DNA of 64,000 nt. It comes from Haliotis rufescens (taxonomy: Eukaryota). Shown here one piece after another: positions 25,751 through 63,845 of the stretch. The stretch spans positions 34,348,001 to 34,412,000 of the forward strand of contig NW_025963813.1 of NCBI RefSeq assembly GCF_023055435.1, written 5' to 3'. The position numbers were made by a program, and so were the translations under genes. Every line of letters begins with the position of its first letter. Within the stretch, counting starts at the first letter, position 1. The notes below the pieces were generated by a model that saw only the letters and a program-made list of their open reading frames with translations, was not told the DNA's origin and ran no database searches.

Positions 25751-26066
25751 TGTATGATGGCATACAACAGAAGTTGTGATATATATCTGCCTATGTGGGA
25801 AACTGTCGGGGATGTAACTGTCATGGATAGATATAATAACTGAACACATTATGGACCGATCACAGAATAAAGATATCTCTCGCGGGACATGCTGGGCCCT
25901 CTGAAGTAAATGTGTTGCTGGTCAAACCAGAGCCTTAAACAAAACTCTCAGACTCATCCTATCATTTTCGTCCGACATTTACCACCGACTTATAATACGT
26001 GAATACGTTGACGTATATGCGCACATTTGCTTATATCTTCCAGGTGACTGGTTTGGTGTCAACGCG

Positions 26067-27034
26067 ATGGTTATTTTGAAGATGTGTCAATCAAACTGTT
26101 TCCATGAATTAAGTCGGTTTCAAATGTCATGGCTTGTCTGGGTTCCGCTGATCCTCGTTTTCTCTCTGGCGCTGTACTGCAGTGACACCATCACCATCAA
26201 CACTCACCACATGTACAACCTCAACATCATCACTTTCCTTGGGCCCGCACGGGAACGGCGGCTGCCTCAGTGTATTATAATTGGCGTGCAGAAGTGTGGA
26301 ACAAAGGCTCTGCTTGGGTATTTAGATCTTCATCCACACGTGGAAACGTCTGAACGTGAAGATCATTTTTTGACGACGACAGCAACTATGGACGAGGCAT
26401 TGAGTGGTATCTCAGCACAATGCCGAGATCACGTGCCAACCAATACACAGTGGAGAAAAGCCCCCGATATTTCATTGACCATAGGGTGCCTGAAAAAGTT
26501 AAAAGTTTAAACACTTCAATCAAACTCCTGGTAATATTACGAAATCCAATGACTCGACTGGTATCGGATTATTTACAGTCACACTATAAAAGAGTCAAAC
26601 GCAACAAGACCCATGTTGATTTTGAAACGTTCGTTCTAGACCCCTTAACACGTGAGATTAATGTTCAATTACAGGCCGTGCAAGTCAGCATTTATCATCA
26701 GTTCTTTTCGAGATGGTTCTTCGTATTTCCCAGGAACCAAATTCATATTGTGGACGGTGAAAACCTAATCATCGACCCTGTAGCTGAAATTTCCCCGATT
26801 GAACATTTCCTCGGCATTGAGCATCGGATAACCTCCAACATGTTATATTTCAATACGAGTCGTGGATTTTACTGCATGAGAATTAATGTAACGAATGAGA
26901 AGTGCCTTGGTGCTTCTAAAGGAAGAAAACATCCAGAGTTCAAGAAGTCTCTGATGAAAATACTTGACGACTTTTTCAGGCCCCACAATGTAAAACTTTT
27001 CCAAATGTTAAATAGACGATTTAATTGGAGTTAA
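26067..27034 (+). CDS. HS3ST: Heparan sulfate glucosamine 3-O-sulfotransferase (HS3ST family), single coding exon, one-base frameshift at 26366-26371
   Basis: Type II membrane anchor (WLVWVPLILVFSLALYC), 5'-PSB motif RRLPQCIIIGVQKCGTKALL, E.HFFD, EKSPRYF, 3'-PB motif RNPMTRLVSDY, F.R.QIHIVDGE.LI.DP and C-terminal CLGASKGRKHP. Adding one T to the T6 run joins the two ORFs into about 322 aa. A splice acceptor TCTTCCAG ends at 26043, just upstream of the ATG. Confidence 0.9.
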
Positions 27035-33743: not shown

Positions 33744-34764
33744 AATTTCTCAGCAAGTAAGTTTGAAACAAAGATAAGGCTAAGACAGCTGTGGATTAAA
33801 AGGAGTCAACAGGTTGATATTTCATCTGAAGGAGTACATTTCTCTTCATCATATACATACAGATGAGTTCTCGAAAACAAATGATTTGTATTAAAACTAT
33901 GCATGTGTAGAACATCGGAGTCATGAACTCCAAAATATACGTACTTTAAATAATTATGTTGTTTCTGAAATTGTTAAGCCCTTTTTATCGACTCGATTTG
34001 ATTCAAGATACGTTTATTTTTCTCAAAGGGTACTAACATAAATTGATTGGAAAAAAATATACGTATATTGGTAAATTCTCTATTTCTATTCATTCAAATA
34101 TAAAATAGTTGATTTTCAATGTATCTTTTATTCAATAAACTATTATAACTATAACATATAACCACAGATGAACCGTTTTTTGAGACAATCGTCTTCAAAC
34201 AAATATAAACACCTTTTCTCAAGAAATCTCTTGACACTTGAGCCATATTACTGGAATTATTGTTCGGTCATAACACGATTACTTCTGTCGGTATATTACG
34301 ATTAATTCAGCGTAATTTGGCTGATGATGAGCGCTTGTCAACCCTAGAGCAGGAGTGCGATCGTCTTGATTCCAGGACATAGGATGTCATCGATATACTG
34401 GGATGTCCTTCATTTTCCTGACAATAAGACCCGCCCTACACTTGAAAGTGCTGGTTTCCTCGTTACTGACTCAATGAGGACTCAGTGACCTACTTTGATG
34501 CAGTCAGAAATGACGAATAACGACGCAGGATGGACATTAAGTGCATGTCCTGTTATGCCAGCGTTACAGGAAACACTAAAGCTAGTAATATTCTGTAAAC
34601 TCTGAAACGGATTGCAAGCATATTTAGTGTACTGAACCTACTGAGAATATGCAGAACCTGTTGACAATCTGCGTGTTTGTCTAATGTACGGTACGTATAA
34701 TGACGGGATGTGAAGGACTTGAACTTATTTTTGTTGATTTGTTTGGTGTTTAACGCCGGTAGTT

Positions 34765-36900
34765 CTATACATCATGGTAGTCAAGTAGAGCATGGTAGTC
34801 CCCGTAGTGCATGCTGGTCCTAAAGTGCATGATAGTCCTAAAGTGCTTGATAGTCCTAAAGTGCATGATAGTCCTAAAGTGCATGATAGTCCTAAAGTGC
34901 TTGATAGTCCTAAAGTGCATGATAATCCAAAAGTGCATGATAGTCCTATAGTGCATGGGAGTCCAGTAGAGCATGGTAGTCCTGTAGTACATGGTAGTCC
35001 AGTAGTGCATGATAGTCCAGTAGTGCATGGTTGTCCCTGTACTACATGGTAGTCCAGTAGTGCATGATAGACCTTTAGTGCATGGTAGTCCAGTAGTGCA
35101 TGGTAGTCCAGTAGTGCATGGTAGTCCAGTAGAGCATGGTAGTCCAGTAGTGCATGGTAGTCCTGTACGTGTAGTACATGGCAGTCCAGTAGTGCATGGT
35201 AGTCCAGTAGTGCATAATAGTCCAGTAGTGTATGGTTGTCCCTGTACTACATGGTAGTCCAGTAGTGCATGATAGACCTTTAGTGCATGGTAGTCCAGTA
35301 GAGCATGGTAGTCCAGTAGTGCATGATAGTCCTGTACGTGTAGTACATGGCAGTCCAGTAGTGCATGGTAGTCCAGTAGTGCATGATAGTCCAGTAGTGC
35401 ATGGTTGTCCTTGTACTACATGGTAGTGCTGTAGTGCATGATAGACCTATCGTGCATGGTAGTCCTATCGTGCATGGTAGTCCAGTAGAGCATGGTAATC
35501 CAGTAGTGCATGGTAGTCCAGTAGAGCATGGTTATCCCTGTACTACATGGTAGTCCAGTAGTGCATGATAGACCTATAGTGCATGGTAGTCCAGTAGAGC
35601 ATGGTAGTCCAGTAGTGCATGATAGTCCAGTAGTGCATGGTTGTCCCTGTACTACATGGTAGTCGAGTAGTGCATGATAGACCTATAGTGCATGGTAGTC
35701 CTAAAGTGCATGGTAGTCCAGTAGTGCATGGTTGTCCCTGTACTACATGGTAGTCTCCGTAGTGCATGATAGACCTATAGTGCATGGTAGTCCAGTAGAG
35801 CATGGTAGTCCAGTAGTGCATGATAGTCCAGTAGTGCATGGTTGTCCCTGTACTACATGGTAGTCCAGTAGTGCATGATAGACCTATAGTGCATGGTAGT
35901 CCAGTAGAGCATGGTAGTCCAGTAGAGCATGGTAGTCCAGTAGTGCATGGTAGTCCAGTAGTGCATGGTAGTCCTGTACGTGTAGTACATGGTAGTCCAG
36001 TAGTGCATGGTTGTCCCCGTAGTACATGATAGTCATGTAGAGCATGGTAGTCCCTGTGGTGCATGATGGTCCTAAAGTGCATGGTGGTCCAGTAGAACAT
36101 GTAGTCCCCGTAGTGCATGATGGCCCTAAAGTGCATGGTGGTCCAGTAGAACATGTAGTCCCCGTAGTGCATGATGGCCCTAAAGTGCATGGTAGTCCAG
36201 TAGTGCATAGTAGTCTCCGTAGTGCATGATGGACCTAAAGTGCATGGTAGAACAGTAGAGCATGGTAATCCAGTTAAGCATGGTAATCCTACAGAGCACG
36301 GTAGTCCCCGTAGTGCATGATAGTCCAGTAGTGCATGGTAGTCCAGTAGTGCATGGTAGTCCTGTACGTGTAGTACATGGTAGTCCTGTACGTGTAGTAC
36401 ATGGTAGTCCAGTAGTGCATGGTTGTCCCCGTAGTACATGATAGTCATGTAGAGCATGGTAGTCCCTGTGGTGCATGATGGTCCTAAAGTGCATGGTGGT
36501 CCAGTAGAACATGTAGTCCCCGTAGTGCATGATGGCCCTAAAGTGTATGGTAGTCCAGTAGTGCATAGTAGTCTCCGTAGTGCATGATGGACCTAAAGTG
36601 CATGGTAGAACAGTAGAGCATGGTAATCCAGTTAAGCATGGTATTCCTACAGAGCACGGTAGTCCCCGTAGTGCATGATAGTCCAGTAGAACAGGATAGT
36701 CCTGTATTGCATAATAGCATAATAATTATAATAGCATAATAGTGCACGGTAGTCGAGTAGAACATGGTCGTCATGTAGCATATCGTAGTCCACTAGTGCA
36801 TGATAGTCCCCGTAGTGCATGGTAGTCCCCGAAGTGCATGGTAGTCCTGTAGTGCACAGTAGTCCTTTAGAACATGATAGCCCAGTAGGATATCGTAGTC
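34765..36900. repeat. 18-bp minisatellite
   Basis: Unit GTAGTGCATGGTAGTCCA with variants. It explains all the 6-aa periodic ORFs at 34765-37004. Confidence 0.95.
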
Positions 36901-44407: not shown

Positions 44408-47400
44408 ATGAAGAAGATGGAGAGACTACCGGGATCTATAAAATTAACAGGGATGTCTGGAGGGCAGGCTACTTACAGCAATGTGGCTGCGGTGGTTGAA
44501 GGGGGGATGGGAAACACCTATCACGGGCCGCAACACAAAGGTAACTATTTTCGTAAATGCATTTTTTGTTAAAGATTGACCATTTCGATTAAATATGATA
44601 TAGAACAATACATAGGCTAGGTCACCAATGGAAACAATGTATATGACGCACTCATCTGAGTAAATATGGAAAGAAACATTATTTGAACGATTGAATTGAT
44701 TTCAGTATAGGCTAATGTTACACTTGCAATGTGTGTAAATGTGTGTAAATTTGTTCAGTGGAAAAGACATACCACAACAACGTGAGCGGCAGCACTGGAG
44801 TGACGACCGTCAATGAGGTCACAGGAGACACGGTCAACATTGGCAGCAGCAGCAGCAGCCCATCCCAACAACCAGCGTCACAAACTGCATCTCAAAGTAG
44901 GGCTCATATATTTATCTATGTTTAGAGAACATATCGAATACCAAACGAGCTCCCGTGTAATACCAATTTTATGAAACGAGTGAATAGTTCTGGTATTTGA
45001 CGAGCGAAAGCGAGTTTCATAAGATTTCTATTAAACGGGAGCGAGCTTAGTATTATATTTATTACTCGCCATTTATAACGTTTTATAGAATTTCACCGTC
45101 GTGTATGAATAGGGAGACATCTACACGACCCACAACATAATCCTTTTGAGTTTAACAGAATACACCTTCAAACAAGTCAAACGGTGACGCATATTAATTT
45201 AATACCATACAACGGCCCTCCTTTAGAACTCAGGCGTCCGTTCCACAAAGTTATCGTAGCGCTAAGGTTATCGTAACTTACCTACTTTAACAGAAACTTA
45301 CGACGGCCGTTGCGCTACAATACGATCGCCTTGTGGAACCACACAGTTTACAATCGCGTAATGAAACAATGACGTACTTTGTGGAATCTTGTTGCAATAT
45401 CCACCGGCGACACAATGTCATGTGGGGTCAGTCCAACAACAGGGTTGCTGAAGTAGTTGAGTGTGCATAAGCTCCTCTCGTTGATCTATCATCTCCTCAC
45501 GCAATGTCGTTGAACAAGCCAAGTGATGTTGGGAGTTTTCAATATTTGTCAGTGAACGTGTTCCCGCAGTAATCAAGCACGGGGTTTGGTATAACGCAAT
45601 GTGTAATACAGCTGTATGTTTATAATATGGGTGATCTCTTCCCGGGCAAGTAATAAATCTCCTTAACAGATATAGGGCCGCGTTGAAATACGATTGTTAA
45701 GCGCTGCGGTGAGTGAATAGTCGCTGTGGCTATATATTCTGCACCTACAGTTTGTGTACAGTCTAAACAAGTCCATGATGTTGGTCGTTTCGGTCTAGGT
45801 TATATTGAAATGAGGAAAACACATCATATGTAGAGGTCACGGTAGCACAATACTGTACAAGGATTACAAGGAAAAGTATTATCTTCATATTTCAGTGTAG
45901 CTATCTCCATTACCCATCATTAAGATGGGTATTATTAGACTTCAACTCGTTAACATTCAAAAACATTTCGAATGTATTTGGGGGGCACGGGTGGCCCAGT
46001 CGTCTAAGGCGCCGCAATTCGCTGTGCAGAGTTGCGTCCCTTGGGCATGCCAGAAACTTATTATTGTGGGTTCGAATCCCGGTTCACCCCACATATCACG
46101 GCGTGTCAGCTTTATGTTGGAGGAAAGCTCGAAGTGATGCAGGTCTCAGACGTTCACCACTTCGGTGAAACCCACGAGCACGGGTACGGTGCTGACAAAC
46201 CTGGAAACATAATCGGGGCGAACCGGGATTCCAACCCACAATCATAGCTTTCTGACGTGCCCAAGGGACGCAACTCTGTACAGCGAATTGCAACGCGTTA
46301 GACGATTGGGTCACCCGTCACACTATTTAGAATGGCTCTCCATATGTGTAGTTTACCTAAGTACCCATATCAGCTGTGATAACACCATTGTCAGACAGAC
46401 ATGGCATATATACTCACCGCCAAAAGAAACGCGAACCAAGAAACATATAGAGAAGTATGTACCTTGAGAAGAGATGTTTCCAATGTGTACCACTTAATGA
46501 CAAAAGTAACAACCTGTAAAATGCTACCACCGTGTCTTTATTCTCATGACGATATGGTGCACGTGATTTTCAAACTTAACACGCTAATCCTGCACGAGAC
46601 AAAAAGTGCAGCTCGAGTCACGGATCTATGGCGTCATGTGTGATGTTCATGAGAGTAGGTTCATACAGTATACCAGTATGTTCGTTTGTGCACGGAACCA
46701 ATCTCATATCTGTTGAATATGAGTAGTTCTTCATGTATTAACCAACATTTATGGTTTTCACGTGTTTTCTGTCGGTGTGTTTCTGTACATATATGTATTA
46801 AATGTTTGATAGGCATTACTTAGAAGTTGACGGATGATAAGGTAGACAAAATTTTACGGATAACAACTTCTTTAATACTGTAAAAAACGACCTGTCGGTA
46901 TAGATCCTTATACCGTTGTCAAGCAAGACTGCATGAGGGACATGGTACAGAATATATATAGCACACAGTACACCTACTATATATATTCTGTACATGTCCC
47001 GTTTTCAGTCTTGCTTGACAACGGTATAAGGATCTGTACCAAAACGTCGCTTTTTACAGAGTTAAATAAGTTGTATCCATACAATTGTGTCTACTATATA
47101 TGAATTATTATTCGGCATAAGGGGTATATCTCTAAACCAGAATGTTGTTTAACGTATATATGATTTAACACACATGTCGAATCATATGATAACATCTACT
47201 GTTTTCCACAGTTCCAGGTCCAGCCTTAGAGCTGATGACAGTTGAAGATGTTCAGGATCTGATGACAAGAGAGCGTTTTCCTGAAACCACGAGAAAAACA
47301 TTTGAGGAAAATGGCATTGATGGCAAATACTTCGTGAAACTTTTAGAAGTGGGCGTTTTGGAAGAGCTCGGTGTCACGTCACCCCTTGCTAAAATGAAGA

Positions 47401-47441
47401 TAAAAACAATTCTCGAAAATCGTTCCAAGAAATCTAGTTGA
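44408..47441 (+). CDS. SAM gene 1: amyloid-like N-terminal modules + C-terminal SAM domain (3 coding exons, 166 aa)
   Basis: Exons 44408-44540, 44759-44896 and 47212-47441 have GT-AG boundaries, are all phase 1 and total 501 nt. Protein: MKKMERLPGSIKLTGMSGGQATYSNVAAVVEGGMGNTYHGPQHK|VEKTYHNNVSGSTGVTTVNEVTGDTVNIGSSSSSPSQQPASQTASQ|IPGPALELMTVEDVQDLMTRERFPETTRKTFEENGIDGKYFVKLLEVGVLEELGVTSPLAKMKIKTILENRSKKSS. SAM signature: TVEDV...F.ENGIDG...L.ELGV. AATAAA follows at about 47640. Confidence 0.8.
46803..47095. mobile_element. Palindromic Penelope-like terminal fragment in intron 2 of SAM gene 1
   Basis: Same sequence family as 18519-18730, with inverted arms around a short spacer. Confidence 0.55.
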
Positions 47442-49533
47442 CTGCCCCATTGATGTTCGCCTATCATTCGGGTCCACTATGCTTCATCCTTCACCATCTC
47501 ACGACATGACATGGACCGTGAACGATGACAATCTTTGTGGCTTCAGTGTTATCAACTGTCATTCATGACATCCAACGATTAATTGTTTTAATCAAAGTAC
47601 ATATTTGTTACCTGATTTTCATCGACTCATATTTTATCAAATAAATATTATCTATTTACTTCAATGTATGCATCACTGTTGTGTTTTCAAGTGTGATTGC
47701 GGAATTAATTTTGGATAGATTGATCCGGCTCTGTGTTTGTTTGTTTGTTTGTTGTAACAACAGGCCTCCAGGTAGGTCCGCGCTTAAGGCTTTATTTTAT
47801 TTCAAGTGTGTTAGTGTGAAGGGTTTGTCCATTACTTATTTGTTTGTTGCTTAATGCCGCGCTCAGCAATATCACAGCTATATGACGACGGTCTGCAAAT
47901 AATCAGGAGGACCAGACAATCCATTGATTGACAACATGAACATTGATCTGAGCAATTGGGAAACGATGACATGCATCAACAAAGTCAGCGAGCCTGACCA
48001 CCCGATCCCGTTAGTCACTTCTTCCAAGAGTAGTTGCTCCCTAAGACAAGCATGGGTTGCTGAAGAGCAATTCTATCCCGGTCAGGCGATGTGACGGGGC
48101 TTGGTGCATGCGGGACACCGTAAGCATTGGTCGTTTCTCATGATTTTTGGGACCCTATTGTCTTCAAGCAACCGTAGCATCATTCACTCATTCAATCACT
48201 CATTCACTCACTCACTCACTCAACCCACCCACGAAACCCACTCGCTCACTCACTCACTCACCAGTCAAGTCCCCGAATGAATTTTAGGTGTTCGCAAAAC
48301 GATGAGCGTTCCCGTCACAAACACATGCAAGGGCATATCAAACGTCAAACGTATGACTGAATACGTGCACGTGAGTAACGTACCAGGTGCACCATCATTC
48401 CACCTTTTGACTTGCAAAAAAAAACGCAACCTGGCTTTGTTATCTAACACTTGACCCAAATTTTACATTCTGAAAATCGTTTCGCACAGGACACTAAAAT
48501 TAGATCCTTGTCATCAACAGATTTACTTCCTGCATGTACATTTGTTGGCAACTGATCAAATGTCAAAAGAGTTGACAGCCTATGCGAGTGGTAACCTGTC
48601 CACAATGGAAAATCTAAATTCGGAGTTGTTGTTGGAAATATTTTCCGAGAAATGTCATGGGCGTTCCCTGAGAAAAGTAGATCCACGTCATGGAAATAAA
48701 AATAAGTCCATGTCATCAGAAATCAATAATGTCAACACTATAGACAACTGTCACTTCGCTAAACCTACAAAGAAACCAGACGTTCATGATATTCGTCCCC
48801 ACAAAGGTAATACTTTATTTCATGAGCAATTATTCAAAGTAATTAAATGCTGAGGTTTTTATTAAGGAGTTGAAACTAAAAAGAATGTAAAGGCATATTA
48901 TAACCGATGTAGTTGGAATGTTGGAATTATTCCAATCACACAAACACTTTTTGTTTATTTTCAATTGTAATGTCATCAGGGTATGCAGTTTGGTATATTA
49001 AACAAATAATTTACGGATCAAAAAGTCGTTTATAGACATTCTGCTTTTATTGAAGAACAGGTAACTTCAACACAACCAAGCACATGCACGTCAAAACGTC
49101 CTGGGGCCTTACGATACATGGCATCTGTAGTGGTCTGGTGTGGGGACCGAGGTTTCATCTTTGTACAGTTGGTTGGCTGGTAGTTTTACGCCGCACTCAG
49201 CAATATTCCAGCTATATGACGGCGGTCTGTAAATAATCGAGTCTCGACCAGACAATCCAGTGATTGATATCATGAGCATCGATCCACGCAATCGGGATCG
49301 ATGACAAGCATCAACCAAGTCAGCGAGCCTGACCCGTTAGTCGCCTCCTACGACAAGCATAGTCGCCTTTTACGGCCAGCATAGGTTGCTGAAGGCCTAT
49401 TCCACCCCGGATCTTCACGGGTCTCTTCTTACAGGACAAGTCGACTTCGGGATAACGAGGTTACAGAACAGTCTGTAAATTGTTTACCACTGTGGTCATA
49501 ATCTGAAGGATCTGTTATATTGCAGGTTAAACA

Positions 49534-50983
49534 ATGGCAACAATTACCGTGACAGGGGCAGACGGAAACGCAAAAATAAAGAACTCAAGCGTTACTGGGA
49601 TTCAAAACAGTAACGGAAAACTTCCATCACAGAAAGGTATGAATTGTTTATTTATCGTTTAATATAGTCGCTTAAAATAACAAACAATAGAATACGACAT
49701 ACACTGTATATGGACAAGCTGTTATGCTAAAGTCTGGATGCCCTACATAGCCAGTTCGTAGCTGGGTCTTCGGCGTTACGAGCGAACGCTTTAACCACTG
49801 GGCTACCCGACCGCCCCCGAAGCATTTGATTGTGTCAACTCATGATATGATTATGGAAAAGGGTTTGTGACTTTTTTTCATTTTTTAAGTATTACTATTA
49901 TTATAATCTTAAATAAGGTTAATCATATATTCATGAGAATTATTTCTTCTATTCACCAGATATCAGGAAAATGGAAGTGACGGGTGTCAAGGGTAATGCT
50001 GAGGTAGACAATTCTGTCGTTGCCGGCATTAATAACGGCCAAATGGGATCTGTTGGTGAGTTTATGTATTCGCTGGAACAGATCCTTATACATTACCATG
50101 TTAATATGGTTGGTCTTTCATCCAAGTATCAATAAAATCAAGAAACGTAATACCATTTGAATTAGACAATTGACTCAATCGGTTTTCTATCTCCACACAT
50201 TGAAATCATCATCGATATCAGTAATAATTTATTCCAGAAAACAGGCAGCAAACATACAATATTGGAACTGCCCACGGCGTCGTAGGTGGGCAGGACATGC
50301 AAGGCGCATCTGTGAATCAAGGGGGAATCACAGGGCCAAGATCAGGACCCATTGCATACTTCAAAGGCAAAGGTAATTATAACATTACTGTTAATCTGCT
50401 GTGTTATATGGATCTTTGAACCGCTAATATTTCATTCCGGGATCAATACTTCATCGGGAACCGAAATATGATTAGCTATGTACACATCTTTGCTGAAAGG
50501 CTCCAACGTTTCTAAAACGAAATTATGTACAAGCGAAAATGAATCACTTCTACACTACAAATAAGTGTCCTTCAAAAAGTATTCATAGATGCTCCTGAGA
50601 CGGAATACTATTAATACAGAATCACTGATCTTAAGGAAATATGCTTATCATAAATTGTTTAAAAATAACTGATAACACTGTGTACCATTGAAACCATCAG
50701 TAAAGCTTCAACGTGACGTAACCTTTGGGTTTTGGCTTTTATTATGAAATATATTTACGACTCCGTTTGCCTTCCAGCTCGTTCGGACATCTCTGAGGAG
50801 GACATTGTTGGTCTCCTACAGGAGAAGAAGCTAGAGAAACACATTCCACTATTCGAGAAACATGGCATTGATGGGGATTTATTGTCTCAGCTCAACGAGG
50901 ATGAACTCAAAGCAAACTTTGGCATTGACGACTCGTTTGAAAGGAAGAAAATACTGAATCTAAAGAAATATATCCCTCAATAA
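49534..50983 (+). CDS. SAM gene 2: three amyloid-like modules + SAM domain (4 coding exons, 179 aa)
   Basis: Exons 49534-49636, 49960-50055, 50238-50372 and 50778-50983 are GT-AG, phase 1 and total 540 nt. Protein: MATITVTGADGNAKIKNSSVTGIQNSNGKLPSQK|DIRKMEVTGVKGNAEVDNSVVAGINNGQMGSV|ENRQQTYNIGTAHGVVGGQDMQGASVNQGGITGPRSGPIAYFKGK|ARSDISEEDIVGLLQEKKLEKHIPLFEKHGIDGDLLSQLNEDELKANFGIDDSFERKKILNLKKYIPQ. An upstream non-coding donor lies at 49060/49061. Confidence 0.85.
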
Positions 50984-52178
50984 TATATTCGCTCAACCAT
51001 CTCGACTGTTAAAAGATCATATGTAATGGATTGTCTGTGTCGATGCTATCAATGTCATTATGAACTATCAAAAGGCTTCTCACTGTAGTTGGATCAACAT
51101 ACTCTTCCTTTATCATTTGAACAGTAGATTTTGCATTGCCTCATGCTATCATCCATCATTACACAATAAACATTAGATCTGAAAACAGTGTTGTTATATG
51201 GGACATGAAAGTTCTGAGAATAAGTAAACAACAATCATACTATCCCCGTTCCCATTAGCATTCATGAAAAAACATTAGTACTTCAACTGAGTGAGTGAGT
51301 GAGTTGGGTTTAACGCCGCTTTCAACAGTATTCCAGTTATATCACAGCGTGTCAGCTTAATGTGGGAGGAAAGCCCGAAGTGATGCAGGTCTCAGACATT
51401 TACCACTTCGGTGAAACCCACGAGCACGGGTACGGTGCTGACAAACCAAGAAACATAATCGGGGCGAACGGGGATTCAAACCCACAATCATAGCTTTCTG
51501 GCGTGCCCAAGCGCGCACCTCTGCACAGCGAATCGCGGCTCCTTTTGACGACTGAGTGAGTGAGTTGAAATTTTAAGTCACATCGGCGATATTTCAGCCA
51601 TACCGTGACTCCTTAGACGACTGCCCCCTTCCCTCCTCTCCCCCCCCCCCCCCCCCCCCCAATCCCCCTTTCCTTCTAGTTCGACTGAAGAATGACTATC
51701 TGTAGAAAATGAAATGTGTAGAAAATGTAGCATGTTATACTAATTAATGCTACTGGTGGGGCAGGACATGCTTACCCTTTTCCCGAGCGCCTGGTGTTAC
51801 ATCACTGATTTTAAGTGGTCCATTCATAAAAGCTTCACAGCTATTTGGCCCTTTAGGCAAAACCTTTTTCGGTGGATAATCAGGGCTGCATTTTTGTGCA
51901 TTGCCATTTTATAATTGCATATTACATCATGAGCACACATCAGATGAACAGACCACATCAATATGGCTCGTCCAATGGGTATACAGATCATTCATAGTAA
52001 AAACTAAACGTTTGCCATTCAATATCAATCCGTAAGTTGACACTAGCGATACACAACCCTGCTCTTTCTGCCTGACATCAGCCTAGATATCTATGACCTA
52101 TTTGTAACGTAAAACATGGTGATAATACCTCATCAGACGTAAAGCTTGAGTTGTCTTCCTTTCATGCTATTCATAACC

Positions 52179-52224
52179 TTGCGTCATTTAAGGAACGTAT
52201 TCCCGAGAAATATGGCTATAAATA
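52179..52224 (+). promoter_or_regulatory. Putative promoter of SAM gene 3 (CRE/CEBP-like, STAT-like, TATA)
   Basis: TTGCGTCA (52179-52186), TTCCCGAGAA (52200-52209) and TATAAATA (52217-52224), then a donor AAG|GTAGGT at 52302/52303. Confidence 0.5.
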
Positions 52225-52571
52225 GATCCATGTCAATGTGTTAACATGTTATACCGGGAATGATAGTGAGGCTCATAACGCGAAGGGCCCTTCAGATTCA
52301 AGGTAGGTTGACTTCCTTGTCATACACAGCTCTGTGTTATTAAAGTTTAAACCATCCAACAGCGGAGTATAAAAAAGAGATAGCATGTCTTCCGCTCGTA
52401 TATAGCCACCATGTAGACACAGTTCGTAATCTAATTTGTTTGTTTGTTGTCCAGTTTGTCAAAAGGACACAACAGTTAGACGATGAAAAACCACGAGAGA
52501 AGCCTGTTGCAAATTTTGGGCAGTTATATTGCATATCATAGTTGTTTATCTTTTTTTATTCAGATTACAAA

Positions 52572-54725
52572 ATGTCAAAGTATGATATCACAATGAAGGG
52601 AGGTGAAGGCACGACGAAAACGACCAATATGGCTGGTATCGTCCACGACGGGATGGGTAATACCTACACTACCAACCACAACCAAGGTAGTCAACTGAAA
52701 GAGTTTTTGTTCACTATTTGTAACATAGACTTAGTGTCCTGTGGATATATCCCTTTGCTGTTCATATCGATGTCATATTTTGAAATGTTCCATTTAACAG
52801 GGGCGGTCGGTTAGCCTAGTGGTTAAAGCGTTTGCTCGTCACGCCGAAGACCCGGGTTCGATTCTCGACATGGGTACAATGTGTGAAGCCCATTTCTGGT
52901 GGCCCCCGCCGTGACATTACTGGAATATTGCTAAAAGCGGCGTGAAATCAACTCACTCACTCACTCCATTTAACGATTCAAATAATTAAAAAAACACAGA
53001 TTCATAATAAATGTCATACATTAATGTGGTAAAAAAAGACATATATACATTATTTGGCAAGAATATTTCGTTATTTACTGGATTTAAAAAGAAGACAAGC
53101 ATACTGTTTTAACAGGGCTAAATTGAACTTGAAGGACATACAGCATTACATGGGTAACATTGCTAGCACTACGAACACTGGACGCTTATCTCCTTTCTTC
53201 AATACATAAAATAAACGGGAACACTTTGTTTGTTTTGGAAAACACTATGTTAGCTGACCTATGTCTCTTTAGCTATTTTTCGATCTGAATAAATGAAACA
53301 CCCATAGTAGTCTTTAAAAGAAATAAGGCCCTGGACATATGCGTGTGCTCAAACATAATTTTATAACATCATAATACTTAAGTTGCACTGAGAGTGTGTA
53401 GCACCTTTTAAGACAATTAAGAGCGCCTTGAAAGATTTGGTTATATAGCAAGCGTCATTATTATGTCATAGCAGCTCTCATTGCTAGGCATTTATTACGC
53501 GACAGTAGGTGAAAGAAGGGAGCCAGAGCCTAGCTCTTTGTTGTCCCTAAAACTTGAAATACTATACCTTAATTAGTCTATTGTTCTCATGTTTACGGCT
53601 AAAAAGGTATTGCAACATATTTTGAATATTGAATAATTATAAATTATACACAATCCCTTATAAACCCTTTCCATATTGATAAGAGGTCTCTTTAAAACTA
53701 TGAATCAGCAATTGGTCAATATGCTAGTTGCGATGACCAAACAAATAATAAAGACCAAATGAGGATAGCGATTCGCAGGAACACATCCTCCAACATTACA
53801 CGGCTAATATGGTTGGCCTTGCATCCATCACATGTAGCAAATAAAATCAAGATTTGATATCGAATTTAAAAATTAACTGAATTGGTTTCCTATCTCCACA
53901 CATTGATCTAATCATCATTAACATTTCATTCCAGAAAACAGGCAGCAAACATACAATATTGAAAATGCCCAAGGCGTCGTAGGTGGGCAGGACATGCGAG
54001 GCGCATCTGTGAATCAAGGGGGAATCACAGGGCCAAGATCAGGACCCATTGCATACTTCGAAGGAAAAGGTAAATTACTGTTAATCATCTGTGTTACATG
54101 AAACTTTGAACCGCTGATGTATCATTCCAGGATCAATACTTCATTGATAGCCGAAATATGATAAGCTATTATCTTTGCGGAAAAGCTCAAACGTTTTAAA
54201 AACGAAATTCTGCACCCGTATTTATTTTAACTAATAAGAAAAAATATGTTTACTTCTGCACTACAAATAAGTATCCTTCAAAATGTATTCATAGATGCTC
54301 CTGAGACGGAATACTATTAATACAGAATCACTGATCTTAGAGAAACACGCTTCTCATGAATCGTTAATAAGAAAACTGATAAACAATATTTTTTAACCAG
54401 CGCCACAGTGACATACTGTTTCATTGTGTAACATGAAAACCATCAGAGAGCTTCAACGTGACATAACGTGTGGGTTTGGGCTTTTATTATGAAATATATT
54501 TACTACTAAGTTTGCATTCCAGCTCGTTCGGACATCTCTGAGGTGGACATTATTGGTCTCCTACAGGAGAAGAAGCTAGAGAAACACATACCACTGTTCC
54601 AGACACATGGCATTGATGGGGATTTATTGTCTCAGCTCAACGAGGATGAACTTAAAGCCTTTGGCATTGACGACTCGTTTGAAAGGAAGAAAATACTTAA
54701 TCTGAAGAAATTTCTTCCCAAATAA
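52572..54725 (+). CDS. SAM gene 3: two amyloid-like modules + SAM domain (3 coding exons, 150 aa)
   Basis: Exons 52572-52686, 53935-54069 and 54523-54725 are phase 1 and total 453 nt. Protein: MSKYDITMKGGEGTTKTTNMAGIVHDGMGNTYTTNHNQ|ENRQQTYNIENAQGVVGGQDMRGASVNQGGITGPRSGPIAYFEGK|ARSDISEVDIIGLLQEKKLEKHIPLFQTHGIDGDLLSQLNEDELKAFGIDDSFERKKILNLKKFLPK. Confidence 0.85.
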
Positions 54726-57700
54726 TATATTCGCACATTCTTATCGACAATTTAATGAACATGTGCAATGCACTGCCGTGCCGATGCGATGCATGCCAAT
54801 ATGAATTATCTGATGGCTGCTCACTGTATTTAGATCCACAGACACTTCCTTTATCATTTGAACCTTAGTTTTAGCATTGCATAATGTTATCATCCATTAT
54901 AACATAATAAACGTTGAATTTGACAACAGTGTTGTCATATGGAACATGACAGTTCTGAGAATAAGGAAACAACAACAATCATCTCACCCCCCTTCTACGA
55001 ATAAGAAAACAACAGTCATATCATCCACCTTCTCATTCGTATTCATGGAAAAAATACTTCTGCAAATTAAGATCGATTATTTGTAGAAAATAGAAACTGC
55101 AGTGTATGTTTGGGTGCATAAGTAATGCTAAAACTGTGATATGTTATAATAATTACTAGCCTTTTATTGCAATTTATCATCCAAAACTGATAAATCTCAC
55201 ACTCATGTCTTTTGATATAAATTATATCAACACTCGTTTTCCACTTTCATCAATTTGTGTTGATAAATTTGATTTTGATGAGCGTGTTCCCTATTGGTTG
55301 AGTTGTCTGTATTGTATGTGAAAATCACATATTGGAGAAGTTCTTCATCCGTAGGGACACGGATGGCGCCGCGATTTGCTCTGCAGAGTTGCGTCCCTTG
55401 GGCACGCCAGAAACCTACGATTGTGGGTTTGAATCCCGGTTCGCCCCGATTATGTTTCTAGGTTTGTCAGCACACTCTGGTGAGATTATCTTTATCTTAA
55501 GATTTTGATAAGCGTGTTCCCTATTTGTTGAGTTGTCTGTATTGTATGTGAAAATCACATATTGGAGTAGTTCTTCATCACTAGGGGGGTTGGGGGGGAG
55601 GGGGGGCACTTTGTTAATTAGGGGGCACGGGTGGCCCAGTCGTCTAAGGCCCCGCGATTCGCTGTGCAGAGTTGCGTCCCTTGGGCACGCCAGAAACCTA
55701 TGATTGTGGGTTCGAATACCGGTTCGCCCCGATTATGTTTCTAGGTTTGTCAGCACCATACCCGTGCTCGTTGGTTTCACCGAGGTGGTAAACGTCTGAG
55801 ACCTGCATCACTTCGGGCTTTCCTCCCACATTAAGCTGACACACCGCGATATAACTGGAATACTGTTAAAAGCGGCGTTAAACAGAACTCACTCTCTTTC
55901 TTCATCCGTGGTCCAAATATTTCGAGTAAACGTGGTCTAAATTGTATTCCACAGTTGGTTGCAAAACGAATACACGCTTTACACTTTTTCCTTTACTTAT
56001 AAGCAAAAGAATCTCTGTACTGGTACAAAGTAGGCTTAATTTCATTTTCTTAACGGATCGGTTTTCTGATTCATCTATCACTTGATTGTCTGGCCTGTTT
56101 TCAGGCTGCCGTCACATGGCTGTGCGGCGTCAGGTAATGAATGCTTGCTTGTTTATGCAACTGGTGTGAATGCCACTGGACATGCTTACCCTTTTTGAGA
56201 ATACCTGGTGTCATCACTGATTTTCACTAGTCCATTCATAAAACGGTCACAGCTATTTTGCCCTTACGCCAAGTGGAGTCTGCTTCGGTGGATATTCAAC
56301 ACTGGTTATTCTCCTTTGCATTGACATTGTACATTTACATATTTTATGCACCTCCTGGTTACTTTCGAAGTTCATATAATACTGGTTAAATAAGATTTAA
56401 TCCAGGTGAATAAAAGCGACAAAACCCTTTCCATATTCATGAGAAGTCTCTGCCACAAGCAATGTCGATCTTGAATCATATCAATTCGTGTCCAATGTTG
56501 AAGATTTGTTGTGAATAACTTCAATAATATCTCCATTCACTCAACAACAGTTAGAGAATCTTTCAATACACCTACACTATTCAAAAGCCTTCAACTACTC
56601 AGTGTGGGACAATGTGACTGATTTATTTATACCCTGCACGGTCATAGTGAGGGTTTTGCAATGGATGAATGCATGCTCTCCTCAGGAAAGACTGAATCAG
56701 ATCACTGTGAAGGGGACACATAAATATAGTGTTTTAAACCGTCTGGTGGCGTTATTTCAGAACCTGCAGGTGAAAACATTTTGACGAAGTTTTCAAAACA
56801 GCATTTCTGATTTCAACGACTTAAAACGACAATTTCTGAACCTATATCTACATCATCATATTTTTATGCACCACAATGGTATGCACGTCAAAAAGGTAGC
56901 ACCCCGAAAGACATATGTCTTTTCTGTGTGGATTTTCATTGGTACAAATCGATATTTCTGAATCGAGAAATACGTGCGTCAATATATGTTACCCTTAGGG
57001 TTATACAAATTCGATCCTAGAATAACCTGGCTGTTAAATGTATCACTGCCTCTTTTCTTAAATCACTTTTTCGTCTTGTGTCTTCCAAAAATGTCAGTGT
57101 CAAATAACCATCCAAATATCGACAGCCAATCGAACGCAATTGGGAATCTAAGTCAGTGTATGTCAAAACGTTCATTATATGTGACATCATAACAAAGCAG
57201 TTCAGCAGTTTTTTACGTCTTTTTTCAGTTGGGCCATCATTACCAGTCGTCGCCCCTTCTGCACACCGGGAGTGTTACTAAACAAATACAACTCGTGATT
57301 GAGCCACATTCAAAACAAGAGACAAAAAAATCCATTTGCAGTTCGTATCAAAAACAAATGCAATAACACAGCAGTTATTTCAAATAGATTTCGTGGAAAG
57401 ATTTCAGTGTCACTATCTGTTTCGGATTACATACACTTAAAAAAACCAGTTAGGGATCATAAATCTTTCAGGGGACAGTTGGGATATTTTTTAAACAGGT
57501 ACAACTCGTGATTGAGTCACTTTCAACAGAGAAAAGACCTCTCGTTCGATTGAAGGTTTAAATTCGCTTATCACTGAAATGATTGTGAAGAAAGATATCA
57601 GTGTCACTATCAATCTCTCGTGATGCTGATTTCAAATATACTCACCACTTAATTGAAAGCGTCAACAAAAGGGAATAATCAGTTTCCTTAATGTTTCTGT

Positions 57701-58428
57701 TATGATTTGGTTTGTTTGTTTGTTGTTTAACACCGCACTCAGCAATATTCCAGCTATACGACGGCTTCTGTTATGAGCACACATGAGATGAACCGACAAC
57801 ATCGATAGCGTTCACACAATAGGTGTACAGTCCGTTCCTACTTAATACTAAACGTCTGCAATTCAATATCAACCAGTTGGTTGACACAAGACTCACACAC
57901 CCTTGCTCTTTTTTGCCTGATATAAGCCTAAATAATCATATGCTTTTTGTCATTTGAGACATGATGTAAGTCAGTGATGACATCAGAATTGAAGTTAGAA
58001 TTGTTTTTTATTGACACAAATCATGACGTTCCGTAATTTACGGAAGGTATTTTCCAGGAAAGTGGTTGTAAATATGTTAATATATGATGACTGGTATGTA
58101 ATAGCGAGGCTCATTGCATGAAGAGCCCTTCAGGAGCAAGGTAGGTTAACCTTCTTGTCATACACAGATCTGTGTTTTTTTAAGTTTAAACTTATCCAAC
58201 AGCTTTGATATAATAAGAAATTAAATGTATTCCGCTTGTGTGTAGCCACTAGTAGACATTTGGTCGTAGCCCAGTATGTGTATTTCTGTTCCAGGTTGTC
58301 AAAAGCGCAATACAGTTCGACAATGAAACGCCATGATAGAAACATGTTGAAATGTTGTCGCCTATTCTGTACTTGTGACGTTATATCGCTCATCATGCCT
58401 GTTTATCCTTGTTTATTCAGAAAACAAA

Positions 58429-60324
58429 ATGTCAAAAATCACAGCTACGGGAGTTGCAGGCGGCACGGTGGAAAAGTCCAATGTTGCTGGTATTAATTAC
58501 GGCGAGATGAGCAATAGGGTCACTACCACCCATAACCAAGGTAGTCAACTCAAAAAGTTTACGATTAATAACATAGGTTTAGTGTATTATGCATTTTTAT
58601 TACAATGTTATGTTCATTGAAATGTCCTTTAATTATTGTTTTCAACAACACCGACTAATCACGTATATATTGCACTTTAATGTGATGAAAAAAACCAACA
58701 TGACATGTATTCATTATTTATGTATAATTCGTTATTGGTATATCATTTTTAACTGATTTAATGAGGAACCATCATTTTGGCACCCGGTATTCACAATTAT
58801 TTTCCATTAAACACATAATCATATGACGGAAGATGGTCATTATCGAATAATAATCATAGACCTAGCTAGATATATTGTAGTCCGAACAAAAGTATTTTCT
58901 TCATTGTCATCCTATAATTTTGTGACCGTCAACATGGCCTTTGGATGAGAGTTGGGTGCCACAACAGACGACTTAATGTCTCCCAACATATACTTTAGTA
59001 TTCTTTATCCTCAAGTCGCATTTACGACACGCATTCTAACTTGTTAACACAAAGTTAGTACCTCTAAATACAACTTAGCAGACCTTGAAAGGTTTAGCTC
59101 TATTACACAAGCCACAATAATGTCGTCACAACGCTCATTGAAAACATTTGAAGTCCCAGCTCTCTGTTGTCCACAAAACTTAGTCGACTGCTAATGTGTT
59201 TTCTGCTGAAAATGTATTCCCATTCATGTTTTGAATATTAAATTATAATAAACAAAAGCAACAAGAAGAAATACAGAGCTCAATGTACGATGCTGGGAAG
59301 ACCACAAGCATGTGTTTATAAATCAAACTTTGGTCAATGCATTCGTTGTAAAATACTAACAAGTATTAAAAGTAATTTATATTCAATCCCAATATGTAAT
59401 AATATGTACATTTTACATTCCAGGAAGTCGACAAATCACAAACCAAGGTAATATAGGTAATATTGCCACAGGTGATAACCACAGGGGGAATATGGCTGCT
59501 TCAGTCGGTGGCCAACCTGCAGCTGGTGGCACAAGAGGTAAGGCTTGTCAAGGACGGATCTTCTTTGTTTGCTGTTTAACGCCGCACTCAGCAATATTCC
59601 AGCTATACGACGGCGTTCAGTAAAAAAATCGAGTCTGGACCAGACAATCCAGTGATTGACATCATGAGCATAGATCCACGCAATTGGGATGCGATGACAT
59701 TCATCAAACAAGTCAACTAGCCTGACCACCCGATCCCGTTAGTCGCCTCTAACGACAGCATAGTCGCCTTTTACGTTAAGCATTGGTTGCTGAAGGCCTA
59801 CTTTACCAGGGATCTTCACGAGTCTACAGGACAGATCTCTATTGTATTACAGCCGAAATTCATGTATACATTAATTTGATATTTTACACTGTTGACCTTT
59901 TCTCAAATTCAATTGTAATATGTTTTGCTTTTATAAACCCATGGTATATAAGATATATATCCTTATGCGATTACTATTGTGGGTATTCAATGGTGTGTTT
60001 GTCAAACTGGTTTCTTTTATAAATCTTCGGGTAAATGGTTCTAATGAATACAATGTACTCATGATAATACTTGTGACATCGAGAGGCATACCTGTAATTG
60101 ACATTATTCATCTTGAACAGATCCTAGAGCACTCACTCCAGGAGAACTGATAAACCTTCTGAGGGAGCTCCAGCAATGCGGACACTATTAAGAGTTTTGA
60201 GACACATAATGTTGACGGGCGATTGTTCATGGACCTAGATGATGAACTTCTTGTCGATCTTGAGATTAACAGCAGGATAGAACAAAGGAAGCTCAAGCGT
60301 TGAAAGGAAGACCTCATTCAGTGA
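58429..60324 (+). pseudogene. SAM gene 4: intact N-terminal modules, frameshifted SAM exon (pseudogene or truncated form)
   Basis: Exons 58429-58540 (MSKITATGVAGGTVEKSNVAGINYGEMSNRVTTTHNQ), 59424-59537 (GSRQITNQGNIGNIATGDNHRGNMAASVGGQPAAGGTR) and 60121 onward (DPRALTPGELINLLRELQQCGHY*, stop at 60189-60191). The SAM core continues in the +1 frame as SNADTIKSFETHNVDGRLFMDLDDELLVDLEINSRIEQRKLKR*KEDLIQ*. Confidence 0.75.
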
Positions 60325-63742: not shown

Positions 63743-63845
63743 ATGGCAACAATTGAAGTGACAGGGGTAGACGGAAAAGCTAAGGTGAAAAACTCAAGAG
63801 CGGTTGGGATTCAAAACAGTGACGGAGAACTTCCATCACAGATAG
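63743..63845 (+). CDS. SAM gene 5, first coding exon (paralogue of gene 2; continues beyond window)
   Basis: Acceptor TTACAG ends at 63734. Protein MATIEVTGVDGKAKVKNSRAVGIQNSDGELPSQI ends at a phase-1 donor G|GTATAT, the same 103-nt length as gene 2 exon 1. Upstream 63130-63740 is colinear with 48680-49530. Confidence 0.8.

Follow-up and report, generated by a model that had tools for sequence, protein, structure and literature searches.

A tandem cluster of tag-SAM genes in Haliotis rufescens and its possible role as an adaptor system for nSTAND3-ankyrin receptors

The 64,000-nucleotide window analyzed here (G000:C35:34348001-34412000, C35 being the window's contig in Haliotis rufescens and other C numbers denoting further contigs) carries part of a tandem cluster of small genes in which short, exon-encoded tags precede a single SAM domain. 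With 100 kb of downstream sequence added, the cluster comprises 13 units, counting small genes as well as gene remnants, several of them broken, over about 79 kb, and extends about 59 kb past the window end. The units follow one order, with one to three tags of a type termed A, then one tag of a type termed B, and then the SAM domain. Exon models based on splice signals place four genes in the span 44759..59537, to which a preliminary description of this DNA had drawn attention, and a fifth starting at 63743 (Table 1). Throughout genes 1-4, all tag exons end in phase 1 and all internal exons also start in phase 1; the B exons containing the peptides quoted in the preliminary description have GT-AG borders, are in phase 1 on both sides, and lie directly 5' of the SAM exon. 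Exon joints were taken from contigs of four runs presumed to be RNA, with no expression level claimed, and are those listed, beside which there are 704 further ones. They connect the three exons of gene 1 in 4/4 runs and gene 2 from its untranslated exon through the third coding exon (2-4 runs per joint); exons of the gene-4 type are also joined, in contigs that may derive from paralogues. The layouts of genes 2 and 3 are confirmed by annotated relatives among the homologous proteins, which are designated P0001 and so on.

Profile comparison sorts the tags into families, A1 grouping with A2/A3 (z 5.0), B1 with B2 (z 4.3, with VNIG aligned to VNQG), and B3 standing apart, and places A against B at background (z -1.2 to 1.4). 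The B cores are composed of 57-60% G/N/Q/S/T and 13-20% V/I, contain no proline, and are kept across four Haliotis species, with tails that drift. For B3, the ratio of nonsynonymous to synonymous substitution rates (dN/dS) is 0.18 in the core and 0.71 in the tail (7 paralogues), values indicating that the core is under purifying selection. A, B and SAM types recombine freely across species as phase-1 exon modules: B1 is paired with one SAM type in the window and with another in P0006, P0013 combines B3 with the SAM type of gene 1, P0007 and P0008 carry chains of up to six tags, and P0009, from another abalone, holds B3 four times in tandem. In the annotated P0007 and P0008, splicing of tags across neighboring gene units, giving at most six of them ahead of a single SAM, suggests read-through, combinatorial splicing or fused annotations.

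The SAM domain itself matches Pfam SAM_1/2 and adopts the canonical five-helix fold in predicted models (VIA Z up to 12.3 against known structures, root-mean-square deviation (rmsd) 1.6-1.8 over 74-79 residues), with the SAM domains of ANKS6 and SARM1 as nearest neighbors in the PDB. Every intact copy in the cluster retains a full SAM, and Pfam detects no catalytic or death domain in the tag-SAM proteins. The fold is the one found in SAM adaptors (SARM1/TIR-1 SAM, ANKS6, Hyphen/SAMD12), whereas the architecture differs: the abalone proteins consist of a single SAM preceded only by exon-encoded tags, without TIR, ARM or ankyrin regions.

The A tag also occurs upstream of nSTAND3-ankyrin open reading frames (ORFs). 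One copy lies 7.4 kb upstream of such an ORF (Pfam nSTAND3 E 1e-19), and its DNA recurs upstream of five of the six next-closest nSTAND3 genes and of another at C35:39.3M. On C534, the gene model links an A exon in frame, through phase-1 joints and a conserved mini exon, to the exon of the NTPase; this mini exon recurs in 6/6 other closest paralogues. The nSTAND3-ankyrin genes with A-like phase-1 exons upstream are located at C534:27615-41432, C212:6.52M and 6.60M, C35:39.3M and 40.9-41.1M, and on C445, C146 and C583. For a survey, upstream sequence was collected for 40 of 46 NTPase matches and for the C35:39.3M gene, giving 41 upstream windows, 8 picked for exon or clade and 33 for the NTPase alone. 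A profile built from SAM-gene A exons only identified 11 sites in 10 of these 41, all in sense orientation, with no antisense site at E<1, and the inspected matches among the 33 NTPase-only windows have plausible exon borders; a cluster-derived profile of the SAM exon found none in the 41. The nearest nSTAND3 genes that bear a tag are on other contigs or, on C35, at a distance of 4.8-6.6 Mb, and the 64,000-nucleotide window contains no NTPase ORF. In one nSTAND3 clade the A motif is split over two exons, and at C35:39.31M the exon is duplicated. A tags elsewhere lie at C46:0.44M and 1.43-1.54M, C40:0.116M, and C334:58.89M and 59.25M; the proteins carrying A outside the cluster include acidic, repetitive proteins that contain a coiled coil, an unknown protein of 485 aa, and a model annotated as gag-like plus FYVE.

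Among the B tags, B3 is present in a second kind of gene. A database search with its profile returned six Haliotis proteins, all of tag-SAM types, and the genome holds further copies at C35:35358446-35359316 (-) and C35:38728776-38729714 (+), where B3 ends a 60-61-aa ORF starting with MG. This ORF is spliced ahead of a papain-like ORF, the joint being seen in two of the four presumed-RNA runs and a matching loose end in a third. Both ORFs are in the same frame and are separated by in-frame stops, two at the 35.36M copy and one at the 38.73M copy. The papain-like ORF has His and Cys motifs, belongs to no Pfam family, and as a profile matches one PDB chain, 5xn7 'Putative RTX-toxin' (E 6e-8), a match which we take to be to the RID fatty-acyltransferase domain. 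Two more paralogues of the enzyme lie near these loci, with no tag found there. Weak B2-like and RHIM-like matches near nSTAND3 genes were rejected for want of exon borders.

We interpret the exon preceding SAM as a conserved, swappable tag of the families B1/B2 and B3, and not as a RHIM, and the A-B-SAM protein as a likely adaptor for NLR-like nSTAND3-ankyrin receptors, with a probability of roughly one half for this reading. Fungal and bacterial amyloid signaling motifs are described as having been defined by the occurrence of one short motif both at the N-terminus of an NLR and on a small protein encoded separately (bioRxiv 10.1101/2020.01.06.895854), and SAM is named among fungal NLR N-termini (PMC9815663). 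At the level of gene models, the A tag is predicted on both a receptor and a separate protein, and from this pattern we infer a mechanism in which the receptor templates the adaptor. The tags would probably polymerize by homotypic stacking of an amyloid type. Once activated, a receptor oligomer would bring its A tags into register and template assembly of the adaptor's A tag as a cross-beta polymer; B tags would stack homotypically, either to amplify this polymer or to draw in further proteins that carry B, the B3 microprotein among them; and SAM domains, clustered in the process, would attract SAM partners acting downstream. The preliminary description had suggested that each protein could bridge two amyloid signaling systems through two or three distinct amyloid motifs. 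The idea of a bridge made of several distinct tags per protein gains from the A tags upstream of nSTAND3-ankyrin genes and the B3 tag in an unrelated gene; the pairing of A with B and the RHIM identity that accompanied it are not supported, B1 being borderline for RHIM.

Compared with the fungal (HRAM/HET-s, PP, sigma, PUASM) and bacterial (BASS1-10) motifs, the abalone system has in common a short G/N/Q-rich motif that a separate small protein shares with a STAND NTPase bearing ankyrin repeats, where it lies in what is predicted to be the N-terminal region, as well as a doubled motif on the small protein (A2-A3). It differs in its animal host and in the nSTAND3 class of its NTPase; the abalone tags are N-terminal to SAM, whereas in the fungal and bacterial partners the motif follows a HeLo, Bell or enzyme effector at the C-terminus; one abalone chain combines two or three tag families that are unrelated; and receptor and partner genes are unlinked. 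No Pfam motif family matches the abalone tags, their likeness to the BASS and fungal sets being judged by Pfam scan only. The tag system would therefore work like an NLR amyloid motif pair while departing from it in linkage, effector type and motif position, and it would not belong to the RHIM family. NLR-associated amyloid signaling is called specific to fungi and bacteria in PMC9815663, and RHIM figures as the sole known animal family in the accounts of PMC9815663 and PMC12261475. If the adaptor reading is true, three non-RHIM tag families in a mollusc extend the NLR-linked mechanism to animals, and a tag common to NLR-like receptors, together with several tags chained per adaptor, adds a motif-converting adaptor to it; the nSTAND3-ankyrin genes, a large family in this farmed mollusc that has lacked an explanation, would also gain a directly testable output route. 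Searches of the open-access literature brought up no paper on these abalone genes and no motif-converting adaptor. A wider version, which we put forward tentatively and consider rather doubtful, is that abalone possess a fungal-style amyloid code, in which A-tagged nSTAND3-ankyrin receptors would signal to an exon-shuffled, possibly combinatorially spliced, multi-tag SAM switchboard that converts the A signal to B1/B2 or B3 polymers and SAM scaffolds, with one output reaching the papain-like acyltransferase-type enzyme whose transcript encodes B3.

Several results weigh against the adaptor reading. All named homologues, among them those of the gene 2 SAM exon, come from Haliotis. The A exon to NTPase splice is predicted by gene modeling only, across gaps of 5-36 kb; 4 of the 33 NTPase-only windows match the A profile, at E 0.005-0.52; and A is also present in proteins without an immune hallmark (P0014-18, P0021, P0024). 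B1 and B2 were found only in SAM genes, which leaves the outgoing partner missing, although the absence of further B copies is weak evidence because the own-genome searches begin with a loose first look. The B1, B2, B3 and joint B1/B2 profiles match 0/41 upstream windows, which cover the nSTAND3 class only and of which 33 are only 10 kb long. Neither the B2 core (dN/dS 0.65) nor SAM (0.80) displays clear constraint, these ratios being drawn from few changes and non-independent pairs. Structure prediction gave mixed results: in the best of five AlphaFold2 (AF2) models of P0009 the B3 copies are strand-rich, with a predicted local distance difference test score (pLDDT) of about 58-79, but the other four models are poor, and in P0001 all tags have pLDDT 30-38, with no strand in B2.

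A complex prediction of four B3 copies scored 0.02, which gives no verdict either way. The match of the P0009 model to the amyloid FapC (E 0.022, probability 0.08, rmsd 20) was not counted, the fold searches being dominated by SAM. Neither the tag region nor the C-terminus of P0021 had a usable feature match in ESM Atlas (structure rows TM <=0.42), the PDB search with the A profile returned nothing meaningful, and neither the 74 pattern matches to B3 nor the 51 to B2 in viral contigs included a relative of these tags.

The preliminary description had classed the B exons as carrying RHIM-like tetrads, and one alternative to be weighed is that the B modules, above all B1, are divergent or cryptic RHIMs that cross-seed with the abalone's own RHIM proteins. 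The three peptides it quoted are present, at 44767, 50249 and 59432, except that the string assigned to genes 2 and 3 occurs in gene 2 only, gene 3 having YNIE in place of YNIG. The RHIM core tetrad is given as (V/I)Q(V/I/L/C)G in PMC9444067, and a G-phi-Q-phi-G signature is reported as common to RHIM, PP and BASS3 (bioRxiv 10.1101/2020.01.06.895854). None of the four B exons of the window contains the core tetrad or the G-phi-Q-phi-G signature, and the core tetrad is missing in 13/13 family proteins as well. VNIG agrees with 3/4 core positions, a level attained by 19% of shuffles of the same exon (P 0.19), VNQG and YNIG agree with 2/4 (97-100% of shuffles), and the best tetrad of the gene 4 B exon reaches only 2/4. 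The quoted tetrads drift among homologues and other B positions hold: VNIG is found in 3/4 B1 rows, YNIG in 3/9 B2 rows (YNIE 5, YHIG 1), and VNQG in 4/9 (VDQG 4, VEQG 1). Cores that are conserved read NIATGDN, VVGGQD and VTG.TV.IG. As near variants of the RHIM core, the tetrads are thus at chance level. The proposed resemblance of 'TYNI..A.GVV.G' to the RHIM frame is marginal, gene 3 scoring 6/10 (P 0.03 uncorrected) and gene 2 5/10 (P 0.23) against a frame that was derived in part from the three abalone RHIMs. Cryptic RHIMs speak for this alternative in that they are defined by a VxxG core according to PMC13506858, which VNIG, VNQG and VVGG fit, but such a pattern is trivially common in these exons, where 2/4 matches arise in 97-100% of shuffles.

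Profile searches bear on the same alternative. In a scan of 17 queries with a limit of E 10, in which HMMER filters discard weak matches, Pfam PF12721 gave no match, whereas the positive controls, three abalone RHIMs on the same contig, all scored above the cut-off; among the listed matches of a genome-wide PF12721 search there is no tag-SAM cluster site. PDB searches with the B1, B2 and B3 profiles returned no RIPK chain, whereas one abalone RHIM retrieved RIPK1/3 in 6/6 rows, though at E 0.1-0.85. By BLOSUM profile alignment against column shuffles, B2 (z 0.1) and B3 (z 0.5) are at background with RHIM and B1 is borderline (z 3.3, 2/300 shuffles); hhalign gives probabilities of 6.7% for B1 (P 0.0054), 0.7% for B2 and 0.2% for B3. 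The RHIM side of these comparisons consists of three rows, two of them near-identical, and the B1 signal is a lead only, because it is one of 15 comparisons against a three-row profile. These tests, among them the profile-profile check that the preliminary description had called for, leave RHIM likeness unsupported for B2 and B3, and borderline, as judged from sequence, for B1. With RHIM (PF12721; RIPK1, RIPK3, ZBP1, TRIF) and the insect cryptic RHIMs, the B tags have in common a short, low-complexity, strand-prone motif in several copies per chain, and B1 aligns weakly with them over its second half and B2 over its upstream strand; the homology of B1 with B2 and the true RHIM genes on the same contig also favor a relationship. 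Given the missing core and signature and the failure to match where true abalone RHIMs do, we regard divergent RHIMs as very unlikely. The canonical RHIM exons on C35 are at 4289066, 4328554 and 19245429, with a candidate death-domain-like frame downstream of the first two.

A different possibility accepts the tags and reverses their effect: the tag-SAM proteins may be decoys or dampers that enter receptor polymers by way of A (and B), capping or diverting them in the manner of motif-bearing inhibitors of insect IMD signaling. Their small size, the lack of a catalytic or death domain, birth-and-death evolution with several broken copies, and the tag-only B3 ORF are in keeping with this, and Rudra/Pirk is described as an inhibitor bearing RHIM (PMC4262963). 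However, the full SAM kept by all intact copies, nearest to ANKS6 and SARM1, suits an output role, and the sign of the effect is not readable from sequence; we consider decoys unlikely, though not to be dismissed lightly. It is less plausible that B lacks any binding code and that its exon encodes only a low-complexity stretch separating the A tag from SAM. That the B profiles match 0/41 receptor windows, that three different B types occupy the same slot, and that B2 lacks clear constraint would agree with a spacer, but the conserved cores with drifting tails, the low dN/dS of the B3 core, and the tandem amplification of B3 in P0009 and its retention in frame in a SAM-less gene do not. Finally, a single chain could fold its A and B modules against each other, giving a two-rung solenoid like that of HET-s, as the preliminary description proposed, or a structural beta-helix. 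The modules are similar in length and composition, and homologous tags do occur in tandem, although only as A2-A3 (also A2-A3-A3) and B3-B3 (four copies in P0009). The background score of A against B removes the basis for a two-rung A-B solenoid, the free pairing of A and B types argues against a fixed complementary interface, and AF2 models contain no A-B pairing, so this arrangement is highly improbable.

Table 1. Exons and tags of the tag-SAM genes in the window (window positions).
Feature	Position	Strand	Basis
Gene 1 exon 1 coding part, A-family tag (receptor-matching type)	44417..44540	+	joint 44538>44757 in 4/4 runs; A profile
Gene 1 exon 2, B1 tag (VNIG; borderline RHIM likeness) and S/Q/P linker	44759..44896	+	exon model, joints, profile comparison
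Gene 1 exon 3, SAM, divergent type	47212..47441	+	SAM_1 E 0.0034, under the cut-off; joint 44896>47212
Gene 2 untranslated exon	ends near 48806	+	exon model, presumed-RNA contigs
Gene 2 first coding exon part, A2 tag	49534..49636	+	exon model, joints, homologue P0001
Gene 2 A3 tag, tandem homologue of A2	49960..50055	+	exon model, joints
Gene 2 B2 tag (YNIG, VVGG, VNQG) and linker	50238..50372	+	exon model, joints
Gene 2 SAM	50778..50983	+	Pfam, homologues
Gene 3 first coding exon part, A1 tag	52572..52686	+	exon model; homologues P0002, P0005; none of the listed joints
Gene 3 B2 tag, YNIE variant	53935..54069	+	exon model
Gene 3 SAM	54523..54725	+	exon model
Gene 4 first coding exon part, A1 tag	58429..58540	+	exon model; gene-4-type joint (contigs may be paralogous)
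Gene 4 B3 tag, core NIATGDN, unrelated to B1/B2 and RHIM	59424..59537	+	exon model, profile comparison
Gene 4 SAM exon, frameshifted near 60172	60121..60324	+	comparison with paralogue; intact paralogue type passes SAM_2
Gene 5 first coding exon part, A2 tag	63743..63845	+	exon model

The SAM exon of gene 4 has two bases fewer than a paralogue, which results in a frameshift in the present assembly and represents either a pseudogene or an assembly error; contigs that contain the two extra bases differ at 20/444 letters and probably come from paralogues of gene 4. Further tag-SAM loci are located at C35:30.93-30.96M and C357:118-121k, and C35:30.93-30.95M holds more divergent A-like exons together with a frameshifted SAM. 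Elsewhere in the window, a sulfotransferase gene lies at 25905-27031 (+; Pfam Sulfotransfer_1 E 3e-20) with an apparent frameshift near 26400-26500, a 28-nt tandem array of at least 72 copies extends from 23399 to about 25700, and other low-complexity repeat frames are found near 34700-36900.

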